64,000 bases of DNA from Acidobacteriota bacterium (GTDB lineage: Bacteria; Acidobacteriota; Vicinamibacteria; Vicinamibacterales; 2-12-FULL-66-21). Below, one piece after another: positions 38,354 through 62,738 of the stretch; position 1 is the stretch's first letter, and every line of letters begins with the position of its first letter. A program made the translations under genes and the position numbers. A model generated the notes under the pieces. That model worked only from the letters and a program-made list of their open reading frames with translations, did not search any database and was not told the origin of the DNA. The stretch spans positions 5,717-69,716 of the forward strand of contig JANMCN010000229.1 of NCBI GenBank assembly GCA_031361295.1, written 5' to 3'.

Positions 38354-38479
38354 CAGCTGCCAGTTACGAGCTCCCAGCTACCAGCTATAGCTCCCAGCTC
38401 CCAGCTCCCAGCTCCCAGTCACGCCCGGGTCGTTCCAGCTGGAAGCTGGAAGCTGGAAGCTGAAAGCCTGAAGCTAAAA
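38354..38479. repeat. heptad-phased palindromic array, AGCT-core family (pilS | pilC gap)
   Basis: The left arm is cagctgc cagttac gagctcc cagctac cagctat agctccc agctccc agctccc agctccc. The loop is agtcacgcccgggtcgttc. The right arm is cagctgg aagctgg aagctgg aagctga aagcctg aagctaa. Confidence 0.9.
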
Positions 38480-39726: not shown

Positions 39727-39838
39727 CAGCTCACCGTTCCAGCTCACAGCTCACAGCTTCCAGGTCCCAGCTTCCAGCTCCCAGCTGCCAGCTCATGTTG
39801 CACATTGCACATTGCACGTTCCACGCTCCACGTTGCTA
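39727..39838. repeat. one-armed chimeric heptad array of 16 consecutive heptads (pilC | pilT gap)
   Basis: It reads cagctca ccgttcc agctcac agctcac agcttcc aggtccc agcttcc agctccc agctgcc agctcat gttgcac attgcac attgcac gttccac gctccac gttgcta. The first ten heptads are AGCT-type and the last six are (A/G)TTGCAC-type. There is no complementary arm, and the pilT stop lies inside the last heptad. Confidence 0.85.
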
Positions 39839-40979: not shown

Positions 40980-41164
40980 CCCAGCTTCGAGCTTCCGGCT
41001 TCCAGCTTCCAGCTTCCCGGCTTCCAGCTTCCGGCATCCGGCTTCCAGCATCCGGTTTCCAGCTTGCGGCTCGTCTGGAACTCGGCCTCAAGCCATCCCG
41101 CTCCGCTGGGAGCTGGGAGCTGGAAGCTGGAAGCTGGCAGCCGGCAGCTGGAGACTGGAAGCTC
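40980..41164. repeat. heptad-phased palindromic array, AGCT-core family, the largest instance (pilT | pilB gap)
   Basis: The left arm (~12 heptads) is cccagct tcgagct tccggct tccagct tccagct tcccggc ttccagc ttccggc atccggc ttccagc atccggt ttccagc. The loop is ~38 nt. The right arm is ctgggag ctgggag ctggaag ctggaag ctggcag ccggcag ctggaga ctggaag. Confidence 0.9.
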
Positions 41165-47581: not shown

Positions 47582-47616
47582 GCTCGGGACTCGGGGACTG
47601 GAGACTGGGGACTTTG
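47582..47616. repeat. short direct heptad tract (GACTNGG x5) in the permease1 | permease2 gap
   Basis: It reads gctcggg actcggg gactgga gactggg gactttg. I could not see a convincing complementary arm in the rest of the 93-nt gap. Confidence 0.4.
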
Positions 47617-47674: not shown

Positions 47675-48982
47675 ATGGCCGCCCTGCGCTCCGGGTTACT
47701 CGGCGAAATCGTGACGATGTCGCTCGACACGCTGCGCACGAACAAGATGCGCTCGGCGCTGACGGTGCTCGGCGTCGTCATCGGCATCACGTCCATCGTC
47801 GGTATGACGTCGCTCCTGCGCGGGTTCGACAATTCGCTGCGCGACTCGATCAGCCAGCTCGGACCCGATACGATCATGGTGCAGAAGTGGGGCGCACTCA
47901 GCTTCGCGTCGGGAAAGAGCTTCCTCGAGGTCGCGCGCCGGCCCAACCTGTCGAGGGAAGATGCGCTGGCGATCGAGCGCGACTGCCCATCGGTGGCTCT
48001 CATAGATGTCTGGCTGGGAGCGATGGGAAACACTCAGTCCCGCATCTTCTACGGGCACGACAAAACGAAAACCATCGCGATCCTCGGCGCGACGGAGAAC
48101 TGGGCTGCGGTCAACTTCGCGAAGCTGGAAATGGGACGGCTCTTCCTGCCGTCCGAGGTCGAGCATCGCCGGCAGGTGGTCGTACTCGGGCAGTCCCCAT
48201 GGCAGTCGCTGTTCCCGAACATCGACCCGATCGGCAAAGTGGTGCGGATCGGCGGCAACGAGTTCACCGTCATCGGAGTCCTGGGCAAGCGGCCGAGCCC
48301 GGGCGGATTTTCGACCGGTGCTGACGACTTCGCCGTCATCCCGTTCAGTGCGCACGAAAAATTCTACGGCAAGGTGCTCAAGGGTTCGGCGAAGATCTCC
48401 GCGAACAGTTTCAATCCGGCGGTGTTCCGCACGGCCATGATCGCGGTGGTCCCGCGCGAAGGCATGCGCGACGACGCGATGCGCGAGGTGGAGGCGCTGA
48501 TGCGCATCCGCCACAAGCTCAATCTCGAGCAGCCCAACGATTTCGACCTCGTGACCCAGGATGCGATCCTGAAGGTGTGGGATCAGATCAGCCAGGCGAC
48601 GTTCCTGGGGCTCGTTGTCATCTCGTCAATCGCGCTGATGGTCGGCGGCATCGGCGTCATGGCAATCATGATGATCTCCGTCACCGAGCGCACGCGCGAG
48701 ATCGGCGTCCGCAAGGCGCTCGGTGCGCGCCGGCGGGAGATCCTGTGGCAGTTCCTGATCGAAGCGGCCTTCCTGACCTCCGCCGGAGGAGTCCTCGGAA
48801 TCATCTTCGGCAGCACAATCGGTCTTGTCGTGCACTGGCTCTCGGGATTCCCCGTGTCGCTGCCCTGGTGGTCGTTCGCCATCGGCATCGGCTTTTCCGC
48901 GACCATCGGGATCTTCTTCGGCCTGTTCCCCGCCATCAAGGCATCGCGGCTGGATCCGATCGAAGCGCTGCGGTACGAGTAG
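47675..48982 (+). CDS. MacB/FtsX-type ABC transporter permease 2 (paralogue)
   Basis: It has the same architecture, with TERTREIGVRKALGARRREI. Confidence 0.85.
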   Translation: MAALRSGLLGEIVTMSLDTLRTNKMRSALTVLGVVIGITSIVGMTSLLRGFDNSLRDSISQLGPDTIMVQKWGALSFASGKSFLEVARRPNLSREDALAIERDCPSVALIDVWLGAMGNTQSRIFYGHDKTKTIAILGATENWAAVNFAKLEMGRLFLPSEVEHRRQVVVLGQSPWQSLFPNIDPIGKVVRIGGNEFTVIGVLGKRPSPGGFSTGADDFAVIPFSAHEKFYGKVLKGSAKISANSFNPAVFRTAMIAVVPREGMRDDAMREVEALMRIRHKLNLEQPNDFDLVTQDAILKVWDQISQATFLGLVVISSIALMVGGIGVMAIMMISVTERTREIGVRKALGARRREILWQFLIEAAFLTSAGGVLGIIFGSTIGLVVHWLSGFPVSLPWWSFAIGIGFSATIGIFFGLFPAIKASRLDPIEALRYE

Positions 48983-49028
48983 CTTCCGGCTACCAGCTTC
49001 CAGCTCGGAGCTCCCGCGCTCGGGCGCC
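48981..49028. repeat. left (pyrimidine-type) AGCT-core heptad arm upstream of the four-helix-bundle gene
   Basis: It reads agcttcc ggctacc agcttcc agctcgg agctccc gcgctcg ggcgcc. Positions 48993-49015 are complementary at 21/23 positions to 49510-49532. Confidence 0.8.
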
Positions 49029-49087
49029 AATGGGACATCCACTGAGTACCGTCTTTGCACACGCCCGACCGTTCAAGGACCGACGCG

Positions 49088-49456
49088 ATGCAGGACTATC
49101 GCAACTTGCATGTGTGGCAGAAGGCCCACGCTCTGGCGGTGGCGACGTACGGAATTTCTGCGTACTTACGGCAGGCTGAGGCTTGGCCATTACGCGACCA
49201 GGTGTTTCGTGCCGCTATTTCGATCCCCTCCAACATCGCCGAAGGTGCCGGTAGAGGCTCAGACCTGGACTTCAGGCGGTTTCTCCTTCACTCGTTGGGA
49301 TCCTGCAATGAACTTGAGTATGATTTGCTTCTTGCGCGGGAGTTGGGATTCCTGCCATCTCCCGTCCAGACCAAGCTTGCGGGCGAACTCGAGGAGGTTC
49401 GACGGATGCTCTCCAGCCTCGTCCAGCGTCTGACCCCCCGGAAGCTACGAGTCTGA
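49088..49456 (+). CDS. four-helix-bundle protein (23S rRNA intervening-sequence protein / Avd family)
   Basis: MQDYRNLHVWQKAHALAVATYGISAYL...SIPSNIAEGAGRGSDLDFRRFLLHSLGSCNELEYDLLLAREL is the characteristic family pattern. The start is the ATG at 49088. The track start at 49055 is a TTG. Confidence 0.85.
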   Translation: MQDYRNLHVWQKAHALAVATYGISAYLRQAEAWPLRDQVFRAAISIPSNIAEGAGRGSDLDFRRFLLHSLGSCNELEYDLLLARELGFLPSPVQTKLAGELEEVRRMLSSLVQRLTPRKLRV

Positions 49457-49504
49457 AGATTACGCAGGACACGCAGTCGCCCGGAGCTTGCACCAAACGC
49501 GGGA

Positions 49505-49544
49505 CTGCTGGGAGCTGGGAGCTGGAAGCTGGAAGCCCGGAGGG
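49505..49544. repeat. right (purine-type) AGCT-core heptad arm downstream of the four-helix-bundle gene
   Basis: It reads ctgctgg gagctgg gagctgg aagctgg aagcccg gaggg and ends 6 nt before the EF-G-like ATG. Confidence 0.8.
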
Positions 49545-49550
49545 TAAGCC

Positions 49551-51650
49551 ATGAGAGTCTATGATGCGCCGAGCATCCGGAACATCGCCCTTGTGGGCCA
49601 CAGCGGCGCCGGTAAGACACAGCTCGTATCGGCGCTGCTCTTCGATGCCGGGGCCGTCCCCCGACTCGGGCGCGTGGACGACGGGACGACGGTCACGGAT
49701 TACGACGAAGAGGAAATCGCCAGGAAACACACCCTGGCGTGCAGCCTCGCCTACCTCGAGTGGAATAAACACAAAGTCAATCTGATCGACACGCCCGGCA
49801 TGGCGAACTTCCTGAGCGATGCGCGGGCGGGCCTCCGGGTGGCGGACGCCGCCCTCGTCGTCGTGGACGCGGTGCACGGCGCGGAAGTATCCACTGAAAA
49901 AGTGTGGGCCGCGGCGGAGGAGCTCCAGCTCCCCCGGATCATCGCGCTCAACAGGCTCGATCGGGAGCGCGCCAGCCTCGAGCGTTCGATCGAGTCGCTG
50001 CGTGCGGCCTTCGGCCGGGCGGTCGTGCCGCTGCAGCTGCCGGTCGGCGAGGACAGGGGGTTCCGCGGCGTCGTCGACCTCGTCTCGATGAAGGCGTGGA
50101 CGTTTGCCACGGACGAGAGCGGCAGGCCGTCGCCGTGCGACATCCCGGGCACGATGCGCGAGCCGGCGCAAGCCGCGCGCGACGTCCTCATCGAGATGGT
50201 CGCCGAAGCGGACGACGGACTGATGGAGAAGTTCTTCGACGCCGGCACCTTGACGCAGGAGGAGCTCGTCGGAGGACTGAAACGCGCCATCGCGGCGTCG
50301 CGGATCTTTCCCGTCCTGTGCACGTCCGCCCAGGCGAACGCGGGCATGCAGCCGCTGCTCGATGCGCTGATCGAATACGTGCCCTCGCCCGCGGAGCGCC
50401 ACGTGCGCGGCTTCAGGCCCGGCACCGAGAACGTCGTCGATGTGGCGCCCGCCGAAGGGGCGCCGGCGTCGGCATTCATCTGGAAGACCGTGGCTGACCC
50501 CTTTGCCGGGCGGATCACCATGTTCAGAGTGATCACCGGATCGCTCAAGGCCGATTCCACCGTCCAGAACGTCACGAGGAACACCACTGAGCGGCTCGGG
50601 CACCTCGTGCTGCTGCAGGGCAAGACGCAGACGGCGGTCCCGGAGATCAAGGCCGGAGACCTCGGCGCGGTTGCGAAGCTCAAGGAGAGCCAGACGAACG
50701 ATCTCATTGCCGACCGGCCGCCGGCGTTCACCCTGCCGGCGATCACGTTCCCGGCGCCGGTCCTCGCGTACGCGATCGAGCCGAAGAGCCGCGCCGACGA
50801 GGAGAAGATCAGCACGGCCCTCCACCGGCTGCAGGAAGAGGATCCGACCGTGAACTACACGCGCGATGCGCAGACGAAGGAACTGCTCATCGCGGGCCAG
50901 GGACAGTCGCACATCGAAGTCACCGTCGCGAAGCTGAAGCGGCGGTTCGGAGTCGAGGTGATCCTGAAGCTCCCGCGCATCGCGTATCGCGAGACGATCA
51001 CCGCGTCGGCGGAAGCGCACGGCCGGCACAAGAAGCAGACCGGCGGGCACGGACAGTTCGGCGACTGCAAGGTGAAGTTCGACCCTCTGCCGCGCGGCGC
51101 CGATTTCGAGTTCGTCGACGATATTTTCGGCGGCTCGATTCCGCGGCAGTTCATCCCCGCCGTCGAGAAGGGCATCCAGGACGCGCGCCTTCGCGGCTTC
51201 CTCGCCGGATTCCCGATGGTCGATTTCCGCGCGACCGTGTTCGACGGATCGTTCCACGCCGTGGATTCCAACGAGCTGTCCTTCAAGATGGCCGGCTCGC
51301 TCGCGTTCAAGGACGGCATGTCGAGGGCCAGGCCCACGCTGCTCGAGCCGGTGATGGACGTCGAAGTCTATGCGCCGAGCGACTATGCGGGAGACCTGAT
51401 GGGCGATCTGAACAGCCGGCGCGGGCGGATTGGCGGGATGGACACGCGTGGCACGGCGACGATCATCCGGGCCAAGGTCCCGATGTCCGAGATGCTGACG
51501 TACGAGCAGCACCTCACGTCAGCGACGGGAGGGCGGGGGTCGTACCACATGACGTTCTCCCACTACGAGGAGGTCCCGTCACACCTGCACGGAAAGATCA
51601 TCGCCGCCGCACGCGCGGAGCGGGGGCACGAAGCGGCGGAGGAAGTGTAA
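49551..51650 (+). CDS. elongation factor G family GTPase (EF-G paralogue outside the str operon)
   Basis: G1 is VGHSGAGKTQL and G3 is LIDTPGMANF. Domains II-V follow (TMFRVITGSLK..., HGRHKKQTGGHGQFGDCKV, SFHAVDSNELSFKMAG). Confidence 0.9.
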   Translation: MRVYDAPSIRNIALVGHSGAGKTQLVSALLFDAGAVPRLGRVDDGTTVTDYDEEEIARKHTLACSLAYLEWNKHKVNLIDTPGMANFLSDARAGLRVADAALVVVDAVHGAEVSTEKVWAAAEELQLPRIIALNRLDRERASLERSIESLRAAFGRAVVPLQLPVGEDRGFRGVVDLVSMKAWTFATDESGRPSPCDIPGTMREPAQAARDVLIEMVAEADDGLMEKFFDAGTLTQEELVGGLKRAIAASRIFPVLCTSAQANAGMQPLLDALIEYVPSPAERHVRGFRPGTENVVDVAPAEGAPASAFIWKTVADPFAGRITMFRVITGSLKADSTVQNVTRNTTERLGHLVLLQGKTQTAVPEIKAGDLGAVAKLKESQTNDLIADRPPAFTLPAITFPAPVLAYAIEPKSRADEEKISTALHRLQEEDPTVNYTRDAQTKELLIAGQGQSHIEVTVAKLKRRFGVEVILKLPRIAYRETITASAEAHGRHKKQTGGHGQFGDCKVKFDPLPRGADFEFVDDIFGGSIPRQFIPAVEKGIQDARLRGFLAGFPMVDFRATVFDGSFHAVDSNELSFKMAGSLAFKDGMSRARPTLLEPVMDVEVYAPSDYAGDLMGDLNSRRGRIGGMDTRGTATIIRAKVPMSEMLTYEQHLTSATGGRGSYHMTFSHYEEVPSHLHGKIIAAARAERGHEAAEEV

Positions 51651-53508: not shown

Positions 53509-53580
53509 ACGTGCTACGTGCAACGTGCTGCGTGCGACCTGCAACGTCCTGTTGCACGTCGTACGTTGCACGTAGCACGT
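53509..53580. repeat. heptad-phased palindromic array, ACGT-core variant (rpoA | rpsD gap)
   Basis: It reads acgtgct acgtgca acgtgct gcgtgcg acctgca acgtcct gttgcac gtcgtac gttgcac gtagcac gt. The outer 18 bp are a perfect inverted repeat: acgtgctacgtgcaacgt (53509-53526) with acgttgcacgtagcacgt (53563-53580). Confidence 0.9.
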
Positions 53581-53581
53581 T

Positions 53582-54224: not shown

Positions 54225-54360
54225 GCTTCCAGTAACCAGCTTCCAGCTTCCGGCCTTCAGCTTTCCGTCCCAACCGCAACCCGACGCTTCCGCGACTGTC
54301 CCAGGTGATCCTGTCCGACCGTAGCCGGAAGCTGGAAGCTGGAAGCCGGAAGCTGGTTCC
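54225..54360. repeat. heptad-phased palindromic array, AGCT-core family (rpsD | rpsK gap)
   Basis: The left arm gcttccagtaaccagcttccagcttccggccttcagctttcc and the right arm gtagccggaagctggaagctggaagccggaagctggttcc are separated by a ~54-nt loop. The perfect 18-bp core pairs 54236-54253 with 54325-54342. Confidence 0.9.
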
Positions 54361-54821: not shown

Positions 54822-54920
54822 CAGCTTCCAGTTTCCAGTTCCCAGCTACCAGCTGGAATGCTCATCCGCTCACATTGCTGCCGTCCGTTCCCAGCTGGAA
54901 GCCGGAAGCCGGAAGCCGAC
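54822..54920. repeat. heptad-phased palindromic array, AGCT-core family (rpsK | rpsM gap)
   Basis: It reads cagcttccagtttccagttcccagctaccagctgg ... ccagctggaagccggaagccggaagccgac. Confidence 0.85.
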
Positions 54921-55301: not shown

Positions 55302-55314
55302 TCTTTGATCCTTG

Positions 55315-55376
55315 TAGCTGCCAGCTGCCAGCTCCCAGCTGCCAGCTGGAAGCCGGAAGCTGGAAGCTGGTAGCTA
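55315..55376. repeat. loop-less heptad palindrome, AGCT-core family (rpsM | rpmJ gap)
   Basis: The left half is tagctgccagctgccagctcccagctgccag and the right half is ctggaagccggaagctggaagctggtagcta. The dyad is at CAGCTG 55343-55348, and 26 of 31 positions are complementary by hand count. The rpmJ stop (TAG) lies inside the terminal heptad. Confidence 0.9.
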
Positions 55377-55487
55377 TCCCTGTCTCTGCTTGTGCTTCTG
55401 GTTCGCGCAAATCACCCGCACCACGCCCTGGCGGCGGACAATTTTGCACTTGTCACAAATCTTCTTCACCGACGCTCGGACCTTCAT
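55374..55487 (-). CDS. rpmJ: 50S ribosomal protein L36
   Basis: It is not in the ORF track because it is too short. My translation is [37 protein letters not shown] (37 aa, stop TAG). It lies at the canonical infA-rpmJ-rpsM position. Confidence 0.93.
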
Positions 55488-55510
55488 ACCCGTTCCTTCT
55501 TCCTGGTCGC

Positions 55511-59840: not shown

Positions 59841-59919
59841 AGCTTCCAGCTTCCGGCTTCCGGCTTCCAGCTGAGACTCCCGATTGACCCCGGGAGCTGG
59901 CAGCTGGGAGCTGGGAGCT
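59841..59919. repeat. heptad-phased palindromic array, AGCT-core family (rpsE | rplR gap)
   Basis: It reads agcttccagcttccggcttccggcttccagctg, then agactcccgattgacccc, then gggagctggcagctgggagctgggagct. Confidence 0.9.
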
Positions 59920-60934: not shown

Positions 60935-61048
60935 CAGCTTCCAGCTTCCAGCTGCCAGCTCCCAGCCAACAGCTTCAATATCCCGCTGCCCGCGCCTCCT
61001 GGCCCCCAGTCTCCCGTCGCTGGAAGCTGGCAGCCGGAAGCTGGTAGC
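60935..61048. repeat. heptad-phased palindromic array, AGCT-core family (rplF | rpsH gap)
   Basis: It reads cagcttccagcttccagctgccagctcccagccaacagcttc ... gctggaagctggcagccggaagctggtagc. Confidence 0.9.
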
Positions 61049-61476: not shown

Positions 61477-61556
61477 AGCTTCCAGTTTCCAGCTTCCAGC
61501 TTCCAGCCCTGTGATTCAGCGTTCCGCCGGTGGCCGGACGCTGGGAGCTGGGAGCT
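61477..61556. repeat. heptad-phased palindromic array, AGCT-core family (rpsH | rpsN gap)
   Basis: It reads agcttccagtttccagcttccagcttccagcc ... ctgggagctgggagct. Confidence 0.85.
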
Positions 61557-61559
61557 GTC

Positions 61560-62636: not shown

Positions 62637-62738
62637 TCAGCTTCCCGCTTCCAGCTTCCAGCTTCCCGCTTCCGGCTTCCAGCAAACCCTTGCTTCCTGC
62701 GTTTCCGGGCCGGGAGCTGGGAGCTGGGAGCTGGGAGG
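62637..62738. repeat. heptad-phased palindromic array, AGCT-core family (rplX | rplN gap)
   Basis: It reads tcagcttcccgcttccagcttccagcttcccgcttccggcttccagc ... cgggagctgggagctgggagctgggagg. Confidence 0.9.

Follow-up and report, generated by a model that had tools for sequence, protein, structure and literature searches.

In a 64-kb stretch of a Vicinamibacterales-like Acidobacteriota genome (assembly GCA_031361295.1, contig JANMCN010000229.1; hereafter the window, in whose coordinates positions are given), we identified a gene for a 122-aa four-helix-bundle protein that lies between two inverted arrays of 7-nt repeats, in the spacer between a MacB-type permease gene and a gene for a paralogue of elongation factor G (EF-G). 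The protein belongs to the family PF05635/TIGR02436 (IVP hereafter, for the protein or its gene), members of which are carried by intervening sequences (IVSs) of 23S rRNA genes. By analogy with these, the segment 48981-49544 is probably an IVS-type cassette in a protein-gene spacer, and in the operon transcript its arms would pair into a stem of the RNase III type. Its parts are a functional PF05635 gene, short inner leader and trailer segments, the leader with a sigma-54-like motif, and the two inverted heptad arrays. We found this architecture again between operon genes of many phyla and within a genuine 23S rRNA IVS. The original prediction for this DNA, of a true link between gene and arms and of an IVS-like topology outside rRNA in which a heptad hairpin carries the gene in its loop, is supported at its core by these results, and none of the refuting conditions named with it that the analysis could cover went against it.

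The cassette fills the spacer between permease and EF-G as had been proposed, spanning the MacB stop codon to the EF-G Shine-Dalgarno (SD) sequence. The stop codon TAG (48980-48982) is overlapped by the first heptad (gagTAGCTTCC), and the last heptad directly abuts the SD sequence GGAGGG (49539-49544), followed by the EF-G ATG at 49551. Tandem Repeats Finder (TRF) reported period-7 arrays of AGCTTCC at 48981-49005 and of GCTGGAA at 49507-49536, and an inverted-repeat search paired 48983-49015 with 49510-49542, so that the 122-aa open reading frame (ORF) is indeed bracketed by complementary heptad arms, of 33 nt each and 85% complementary. Direct reading reproduced exactly the predicted 21/23 complementarity between 48993-49015 (ccagcttccagctcggagctccc) and the reverse complement of 49510-49532 (ccagcttccagctcccagctccc). 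The long-range stem between the arms was present in both the minimum free energy (MFE) and the centroid RNA folds of 48975-49550; in these models the arms are predicted to enclose the entire IVP ORF in the loop, and the base of the stem is predicted to bring the MacB stop codon beside the EF-G ribosome-binding site. Each spacer beside the IVP gene holds one arm type only and no complete hairpin. A scan with the PF05635 hidden Markov model found a single IVP gene in the window, and Rfam at gathering thresholds matched no family anywhere in the 64 kb, so the cassette is not within a 23S rRNA helix (25 or 45). All features are listed in Table 1.

The 122-aa ORF matched PF05635 (E = 3.3e-31, 108.1 bits, cutoff 33.8) and TIGR02436 (E = 8e-31, 106.4 bits, cutoff 24), and the AlphaFold2 (AF2) monomer model (pLDDT 92.2) consists of four helices, at residues 4-26, 30-54, 59-85, and 91-115. 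This model covers the monomer of a family characterised as a homopentameric toroid. Its closest solved relatives are two structural-genomics entries named 'S23 ribosomal protein', XCC0516 (2GSC), which is the nearest (E = 2e-13, 34% identity, Foldseek TM 0.84-0.89), and BT_0352 (2RLD; Foldseek TM 0.78-0.91). The family motif has been given as (G)xxRxxxSxxxNxxE (PMC3936711); IVP keeps R-x3-S-x3-N-x2-E as R41-AAI-S45-IPS-N49-IA-E52, the leading G not being present. In the homologue alignment S45, N49, and E52 were invariant and R41 was nearly so (at least 90%), and the ratio of nonsynonymous to synonymous substitution rates (dN/dS) of 0.04-0.08 indicated strong purifying selection on the gene. 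Some database names of close homologues read 'bAvd family'. PADLOC and PHROGs returned no match, placing IVP in no defence-system or phage family of these collections, and the exact protein was without a record in the assembly index. The G+C content at third codon positions was 0.68 in the IVP gene, compared to 0.87-0.92 in the flanking genes, which fits either foreign origin or different expression.

Loci retrieved with homologues (L-numbers) included orthologues of the MacB/EF-G site from metagenomes (L001-L004) and from species-representative genomes (L005-L031, L047, and L082). They share the order HlyD, MacB1, MacB2, arm-IVP-arm, and EF-G, followed on the opposite strand by L17, RpoA, and S4. 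Arms were present in nearly all orthologous loci carrying IVP, and hardly any relative had the ORF at this site without them. Lineages differ in their heptad unit, yet in every case the 3' arm complements the 5' arm. Most orthologues have AGCTTCC as 5'-arm unit, with CAGTTCC in L010, L011, L015, L022, and L030, CCGCTTC in L026 and L028, and CAGTCGC or CAGTTGC in L023 and L025; across lineages, units included AGCTTCC, CAGTTCC, CCGCTTC, GAGCTAT, ACAGATT, CTCGGCT, GGCTGTT, TTAGGTG, TAGGGAA, and GGGCTAT. A heptad typically consists of a constant 4-nt core and three variable bases. Among close orthologues (the window, L001, L004/L006, and L005), the 5' arm ranged from ~5 to ~14 heptads, while the 3' arm was steady at 4-5.

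Comparison of these loci showed that arms and ORF share one fate, whether the unit is inherited, replaced, inverted, or decayed. The clearest replacement is between L001 and L022, in which MacB2, EF-G, and RpoA are 98%, 97%, and 100% identical, compared to 68% for IVP, and the arm types differ. In their nucleotide alignment, near-identity ends 6 nt after the MacB stop codon and resumes at the EF-G SD sequence, and the whole interval is diverged, arms included; divergence begins to rise over the last ~40 nt of MacB. Between the window and L005, IVP was 92% identical and MacB2 78%. In L023 (6001-6345) IVP is inverted between its arms with the surrounding gene order unchanged, as expected from recombination between inverted arms, and IVP is likewise inverted relative to MacB and EF-G in L093 (1699-2208) and L144 (555-1178). 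L095 (~290-975) has nested arms, with outer (CCAGCTT)n and inner (GGTTCCA)n arrays mirrored on the 3' side as (GGAACC)n followed by (AGCTGGA)n. Copies of IVP were decayed or truncated in L026, L027, L030, L082, L148, L089, L105, and L112. An armed copy in another setting occurs in L025, and in L056 two copies are separated by 3 kb. Protein P0099, found on 11 contigs, occupied the same locus every time.

The association between gene and arms extends well beyond this site. We scored the best ungapped stem between the 250-nt flanks of a gene, irrespective of register and with a threshold of at least 30, in 82 loci with sufficient flank. In Acidobacteria, 91% of 33 IVP genes reached this threshold vs. 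8.8% of 285 control ORFs from the same loci (Mann-Whitney p = 2.5e-16), and in other phyla 63% of 49 IVP genes vs. 0.8% of 380 control ORFs (Mann-Whitney p = 8e-29). A strict period-7 detector found inverted arrays around 21/33 IVP genes and 16/291 control ORFs in Acidobacteria, and around 12/49 and 0/392, respectively, outside this phylum, where only 0-6 heptad arrays occur per 12 kb and 43 of 86 lay within 300 nt of an IVP gene. Inspection by eye revealed short inverted heptad arms in almost every non-acidobacterial locus. The homologues came from Anaerolineae, Acidimicrobiia, other Actinomycetota, Gemmatimonadota, Phycisphaerae, Planctomycetota, Zixibacteria, Nitrospiraceae, Bacteroidota, Ignavibacteriae, Armatimonadota (Fimbriimonadaceae), Opitutaceae, and Selenomonadaceae, so that flanking by inverted heptad arms holds for family members in about a dozen phyla. 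Five loci in a viral-contig collection behaved in the same way, one of them (L182) with arms that are exact reverse complements over 32 nt, and IVP genes on cyanobacterial plasmids were likewise flanked by heptamer arrays. In Gemmatimonadaceae (L054, L056, L068, and L075), the inverted repeats beside IVP are 37-70 nt long and non-heptad, with partial conservation from L054 to L056, indicating that arms need not be heptadic. Taken together, the link between gene and arms is not due to chance.

Many of these cassettes lie within operons, as at the MacB/EF-G site. The ORF caller misassigns some neighbours in high-GC DNA, and we therefore report co-orientation only where tblastn or Pfam confirmed it. 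By Pfam assignment of the neighbours, IVP lies between Cpn10 and Cpn60 (groES-groEL) in L080, between coproporphyrinogen oxidase and ALAD (hemF-hemB) in L045, between an argC-like semialdehyde dehydrogenase and a class III aminotransferase in L067 (the same site, by sequence reading, in L061, L071, and L081), between UDP-glucose dehydrogenase and an epimerase in L043, and between a class V aminotransferase and a 2-hydroxyacid dehydrogenase in L034. The flanking pairs in these five loci are functionally linked and co-directional, and in most such loci the 5' arm begins a few bases from the upstream stop codon and the 3' arm stops at the downstream SD sequence. On a Pseudanabaena plasmid (L168, 1286-1965), IVP is located between cas6 and cas4 (PLSDB annotation), preceded by a (TAGCTTT)n/(AAAGCTA)n hairpin and followed by a long (AAAGCCA)n array. 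A cmr3-IVP-cmr2 arrangement in Pleurocapsa was previously read as a functional association (PMC3936711).

We also found the same design inside an rRNA gene, which bears on a check suggested with the original prediction, whether 23S rRNA genes carry an IVS with similar arms. L170 is a stretch of AZO_p2 of Azospirillum lipoferum 4B without annotated feature that matches the Rfam large-subunit rRNA family (RF02541, 2529 bits), and its IVP ORF lies within an insert in the 23S gene, at a position that we take to be the helix-45 region. The 5' arm of this insert reads tcagagg-acggatg-acagagg-acggagg, the 3' arm ccgtcct-ctgtctt-ctgtcat-ccgtctt, and by direct reading their mismatches comprise three G:U and one A:C. 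A search of the first 84 loci for the sarcin-ricin loop motif yielded no rRNA-embedded copy, and L170 was found only by tblastn against plasmids. The IVS of Coxiella is 428 nt long, is located in helix 45, and has an S23p ORF and a 28-bp stem of terminal repeats (Warrier et al., PMC4990558). RNase III cuts were mapped within this stem, at the start of 2-3 tandem GACAGAT heptamers, the number of which varies between strains (PMC4990558). According to its authors, the encoded protein is probably not made and is decaying, although the IVS itself persists, and the origin and function of IVSs are unclear (PMC4990558). Together, the GACAGAT heptamers of Coxiella and the heptad arms of L170 indicate that rRNA IVS arms are built like those of the window, and the variable copy number of the 5' arm among orthologues resembles the strain-variable number of Coxiella heptamers.

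If the segment is an IVS-type cassette, its arms would pair in the MacB-to-EF-G read-through transcript as an interrupted duplex of ~33-45 bp, which by analogy with the Coxiella IVS would be a substrate of RNase III. Whether the stem is cleaved or the insert merely looped out, the operon would be shielded from these 560 nt, which could thus be tolerated between a stop codon and the next ribosome-binding site. Cleavage would also release the IVP message and leave an EF-G mRNA with a short, SD-bearing leader. The heptad period would permit the arms to grow or shrink by slippage, with complementarity kept in any register. Given that IVP is clearly selected, we take the protein to act on the nucleic acid of the element itself. 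We infer both the RNA processing step and this role of IVP by analogy, RNase III cleavage being shown in the rRNA context only.

Several observations weigh against this reading. The fold energy of the whole region is unexceptional (z = -1.49), and many mismatches at the variable heptad position break the stem about every 7 bp. Arm mismatches flanking IVP were G:T in 70 and A:C in 54 cases (p = 0.18), which is no RNA-specific signature, and ORF-less hairpins read in the transcribed sense showed a slight opposite trend (G:T 53 vs. A:C 79); RNA is thus not preferred to DNA by these wobble tests. Support for mirror symmetry at the level of single heptads was weak, the permutation of heptad order being low-powered with 4-5 units per arm. 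Most acidobacterial loci are orthologous and count as one evolutionary origin, so that the evidence from Acidobacteria consists of arm co-variation and the breadth comes from other phyla. Finally, inverted cassettes and the conserved sigma-54-like motif show that IVP need not be co-transcribed with the operon, and the inversions show that arms recombine as DNA.

Heptad arrays could instead be the terminal repeats of a mobile or invertible cassette and serve as recombination substrates, with the RNA stem as a by-product, a possibility that we consider somewhat unlikely as the explanation. Unit replacement between the near-identical backgrounds of L001 and L022, the three inversions, and the nested arms of L095, which look like an armed cassette inserted inside another hairpin, are all consistent with such a DNA-level element, as are the presence of the family at unrelated sites in many phyla, the relocated armed copy in L025, the lack of a G:U bias in the arms, and the Gemmatimonadaceae repeats, which resemble terminal inverted repeats. 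However, no transposase or recombinase occurs in the cassette or its annotated neighbourhood, the sole cassette ORF being the 122-aa IVP, and reading of the window sequence revealed no target-site duplication at the arm ends (gagTAGCTTCC... / ...GGAAGCCCGGAGGG), without a systematic search across loci. Moreover, the site is stable across an order-level clade, with the protein on 11 contigs always at one locus, the replacement is explicable by ordinary homologous recombination in the flanks, in agreement with the divergence rise near the end of MacB, and the arms of rRNA IVSs demonstrably act as RNA (Coxiella, PMC4990558). The DNA-level element and the RNA model can both be true, and given the inversions, the former is probably partly true as well. 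A recognisable transposon was rejected on two grounds, the missing transposase and the arm ends, at which no target duplication was seen on reading.

Arrays also occur without a gene. As speculation, the original prediction offered that the short arrays may be MITE-like derivatives of an ORF-bearing element, or that the protein may bind such stems. About 12 ORF-less heptad hairpins of the same AGCT family occupy other intercistronic spacers of the window, mostly in ribosomal-protein operons (Table 1), and the period-7 arrays of the window are confined to intergenic DNA. The MacB1/MacB2 spacer holds a short (CTCGGGA)n period-7 array, yet another unit, at 47583-47613. The spacer at 55302-55510 (minus strand) contains a short L36-like ORF, below the ORF threshold, followed by a nearly loop-less heptad hairpin. 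A second heptad family of the ACGTGCA/GTTGCAC type (53509-53581 and 39797-39836) forms a hairpin of its own between the S4 and rpoA genes and also abuts a CCAGCTC array (39727-39836), and several unrelated heptad units therefore coexist in one genome.

Table 1. Coordinates of the cassette at the MacB/EF-G junction, its flanking genes, and ORF-less heptad hairpins in the window.
Feature	Position	Strand	Basis
5' arm, ~five AGCTNCC-type heptads	48981-49015	+	TRF, repeat search, direct reading
Stem inner extension, 5' side, pairs with 49493-49504	49012-49023	+	12 nt, 83% complementary; within MFE stem
Sigma-54-like -24/-12 motif TGAGTAC-N5-TTGCA, putative promoter	49043-49059	+	Conserved position in ~30 orthologous cassettes
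IVP gene, 122-aa four-helix bundle (PF05635/TIGR02436)	49088-49456	+	Profile search, AF2, Foldseek, dN/dS
Sigma-70-like consensus TTGGGA-18-TATGAT inside IVP ORF, possible EF-G promoter	49295-49324	+	Sequence match, conservation
Stem inner extension, 3' side	49493-49504	+	Repeat search, RNA fold
3' arm, ~five GGNAGCT-type heptads, ends at EF-G SD sequence	49507-49542	+	TRF, repeat search
Second MacB-type permease (MacB_PCD + FtsX), left flank, outside cassette	47675-48982	+	Domain search, synteny
EF-G paralogue, right flank	49551-51650	+	Domain search, synteny
ORF-less AGCT-family heptad hairpin filling intercistronic spacer	38354-38475	-	TRF, spacer scan
ORF-less heptad hairpin, loop ~50 nt	40981-41163	-	TRF, spacer scan
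ORF-less heptad hairpin between S11 and S4 genes	54225-54356	-	TRF, spacer scan; genes by synteny
ORF-less heptad hairpin between S13 and S11 genes	54822-54918	-	TRF, spacer scan
ORF-less heptad hairpin, almost loop-less, after small L36-like ORF	55316-55375	-	TRF
ORF-less heptad hairpin in ribosomal-protein operon	59841-59919	-	TRF, spacer scan
ORF-less heptad hairpin	60935-61048	-	TRF, spacer scan
ORF-less heptad hairpin	61477-61557	-	TRF, spacer scan
ORF-less heptad hairpin	62638-62737	-	TRF, spacer scan

These arrays bear on another explanation, which we regard as doubtful, namely that the heptads bind the IVP pentamer or some other factor with a 7-nt ruler, with autoregulation via the arms and action in trans on the ORF-less hairpins. 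A period of strictly 7 in all phyla while the sequence varies would agree with this, as would variable heptad positions that need not pair, the strong purifying selection on IVP, and a fold shared with Avd, a chain of the ribonucleoprotein of a diversity-generating retroelement (DGR) reverse transcriptase (8UB7/4DWL, TM 0.74-0.80). Outside the junction, those loci among L085-L164 whose site holds an intact IVP had a heptad-array density of 2.64 per 10 kb, compared to 0.38 in those with short empty spacers and 0.60 in the rest, although this comparison is confounded by phylogeny and relies on small counts (9 vs. 2 vs. 6 arrays). Protein-binding arrays fit poorly with several unrelated heptad units in a genome that has a single IVP of this subfamily, as well as with the Coxiella IVS, which persists with a decaying protein that is probably not made (PMC4990558).

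That heptad hairpins are so frequent in spacers that an unrelated small gene landed beside or inside one might be suggested by the ~12 hairpins in 64 kb and by ORF-less hairpins at the MacB/EF-G junction of L117 and the L108 group, but such a coincidence is extremely improbable and effectively refuted, given one arm type instead of a complete hairpin in each spacer beside the gene, recurrence of the arrangement where arrays are rare and half of them lie near an IVP gene while 0/392 control ORFs qualify, joint replacement of arms and ORF, and the real rRNA IVS of the same design in L170.

Junction contents in more distant relatives, recovered by a metagenome scan with the EF-G N-terminus, were of three types. 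The first is a spacer of 47-110 nt with a sigma-70-like promoter and without arms; the second has a heptad hairpin without ORF immediately before the EF-G SD sequence; and in the third, an unrelated ORF of ~80 aa, apparently a membrane protein, is followed by a promoter and an ORF-less hairpin. The ~80-aa ORF (L108, L109, L114, L119, L121, L133, L134, L142, L143, L146, L150, L161, and L162) has one hydrophobic segment (…YDMLNEDKR.A.EIIVEE…DPED.DG.LP.L) and precedes a promoter-like TTGCG-N17-TATGAT sequence. ORF-less hairpins at the junction were found in L117 and in the L108 group (L108, L109, L114, L119, L121, L133, and L162), in which the hairpin sits in the EF-G 5' leader.

Two promoter-like motifs were found within the cassette. 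In the window, the TTGC of the sigma-54-like motif lies 33 nt upstream of the IVP ATG, and it is found at -33 to -36 in nearly all Vicinamibacterales copies; the form nGCAY-N5-TTGCA is conserved across L001-L031, and L025 has the perfect sigma-54 consensus TGGCAC-N5-TTGC. Copies whose arm directly adjoins the start codon, the usual case in other phyla, lack the motif. The strict pattern GCAY-N5-TTGCA showed no enrichment in the window (1 match vs. 0.66 expected), whose own copy is degenerate (GTAC). As a promoter, the motif would account for continued expression of inverted copies. The TTGGGA-18-TATGAT stretch inside the ORF encodes LGSCNELEYD and is nucleotide-invariant among orthologues, and its TATGAT/TATCAT segment is the piece that survives upstream of EF-G where the IVP gene has decayed (L089, L097, L098, L105, and L112). 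This intra-ORF sigma-70-like sequence may drive EF-G.

ORF-bearing IVSs have so far been treated as a curiosity of 23S rRNA. Should such cassettes prove frequent in operon spacers across about a dozen phyla, IVSs would be a general way for inserts to live in transcribed units, and not an rRNA phenomenon. It would follow that PF05635 genes in cas operons or beside other gene sets may be cassette insertions instead of functional partners, and that the published 'CRISPR association' of the family may reflect cassette insertion, as in cas6-IVP-cas4 of L168. Intergenic heptamer repeats would also gain a concrete genetic partner. A wider conjecture, tentative and on balance unlikely, is that PF05635 genes with inverted heptad arms form one pan-bacterial class of intervening elements that colonises the loops of transcribed hairpins, in rRNA helices and operon spacers alike; a pentameric protein would bind, propagate, or chaperone the heptads, and ORF-less hairpins and arrays, including those of Vicinamibacterales spacers, the short tandemly repeated repetitive (STRR) sequences of cyanobacteria, and the TAACTGA repeats of Beggiatoa, would be footprints or non-autonomous derivatives. 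Cultivable carriers in which the question could be tested include Nostoc PCC 7120, Azospirillum lipoferum 4B, and Solitalea. Our literature search, with incomplete coverage, returned no prior general link of PF05635 genes to inverted heptad arrays and no IVS-type cassettes in operon spacers, and a search for heptamer repeats in Acidobacteria found no earlier description of a link between gene and arrays; the Coxiella heptamers were mentioned only as a local detail (PMC4990558).

Among known systems, Avd of DGRs (4DWL, 8UB7) resembles IVP in its four-helix-bundle fold (TM 0.74-0.80) and in being a small chain of the same size class, and 8UB7 is a ribonucleoprotein that contains nucleic acid. 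Unlike these similarities in structure, sequence identity is ~11%, with no phmmer match at E < 0.01. We rejected a DGR because no reverse transcriptase was found among the annotated neighbours (an HlyD-type protein, two MacB permeases, EF-G, L17, RpoA, and S4), a template/variable repeat pair not having been searched for. The DGR layout, to our knowledge, does not include inverted heptad arms.

Heptamer repeats are known from intergenic regions, as the cyanobacterial STRR sequences and as the TAACTGA repeats of Beggiatoaceae, Cyanobacteria, and Bacteroidetes (PMC4679880). Unlike the arms, these were described as direct repeats, with one inverted set among 170 in Maribeggiatoa, and neither PF05635 genes nor rRNA IVSs are connected with them in that study, whose text contains neither '23S' nor 'helix bundle' (PMC4679880). 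The likeness lies in period-7 tandem arrays between genes that often end just upstream of a start codon; in addition, nAACTGn is the 3'-arm unit of many cassettes, and cyanobacterial IVP genes are flanked by such arrays.

Stem-loops in the spacers of polycistronic mRNAs also include the intercistronic RNase III sites of phage T7 early mRNA and the repetitive extragenic palindromic (REP) and bacterial interspersed mosaic element (BIME) hairpins, such as the REP sequences of E. coli. Like the cassette, they fill spacers, and their processing or stabilisation need not harm neighbouring cistrons, but they are without a gene in the loop and are not built of heptads.

ORF-bearing IVSs in 23S rRNA are known from Leptospira, Coxiella burnetii (helix 45), Brucella, and Xanthomonas. 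The window element differs from them in its host, which is an operon transcript, and in arms that run from a stop codon to an SD sequence and not from an rRNA helix. Its gene shows strong purifying selection and comes with its own promoter-like motif, whereas the Coxiella ORF was reported as probably untranslated and decaying, and it is only for the rRNA elements that excision by RNase III has been demonstrated. What they have in common is a PF05635 or 'S23p' ORF in the loop, terminal inverted repeats as closing stem, an element size of ~430-560 nt, and tandem heptamers in the arms, GACAGAT in Coxiella (PMC4990558) and CAGAGGA/CGGATGA in L170. The element at 48981-49544 thus lies outside rRNA, but has the architectural features of a 23S IVS.

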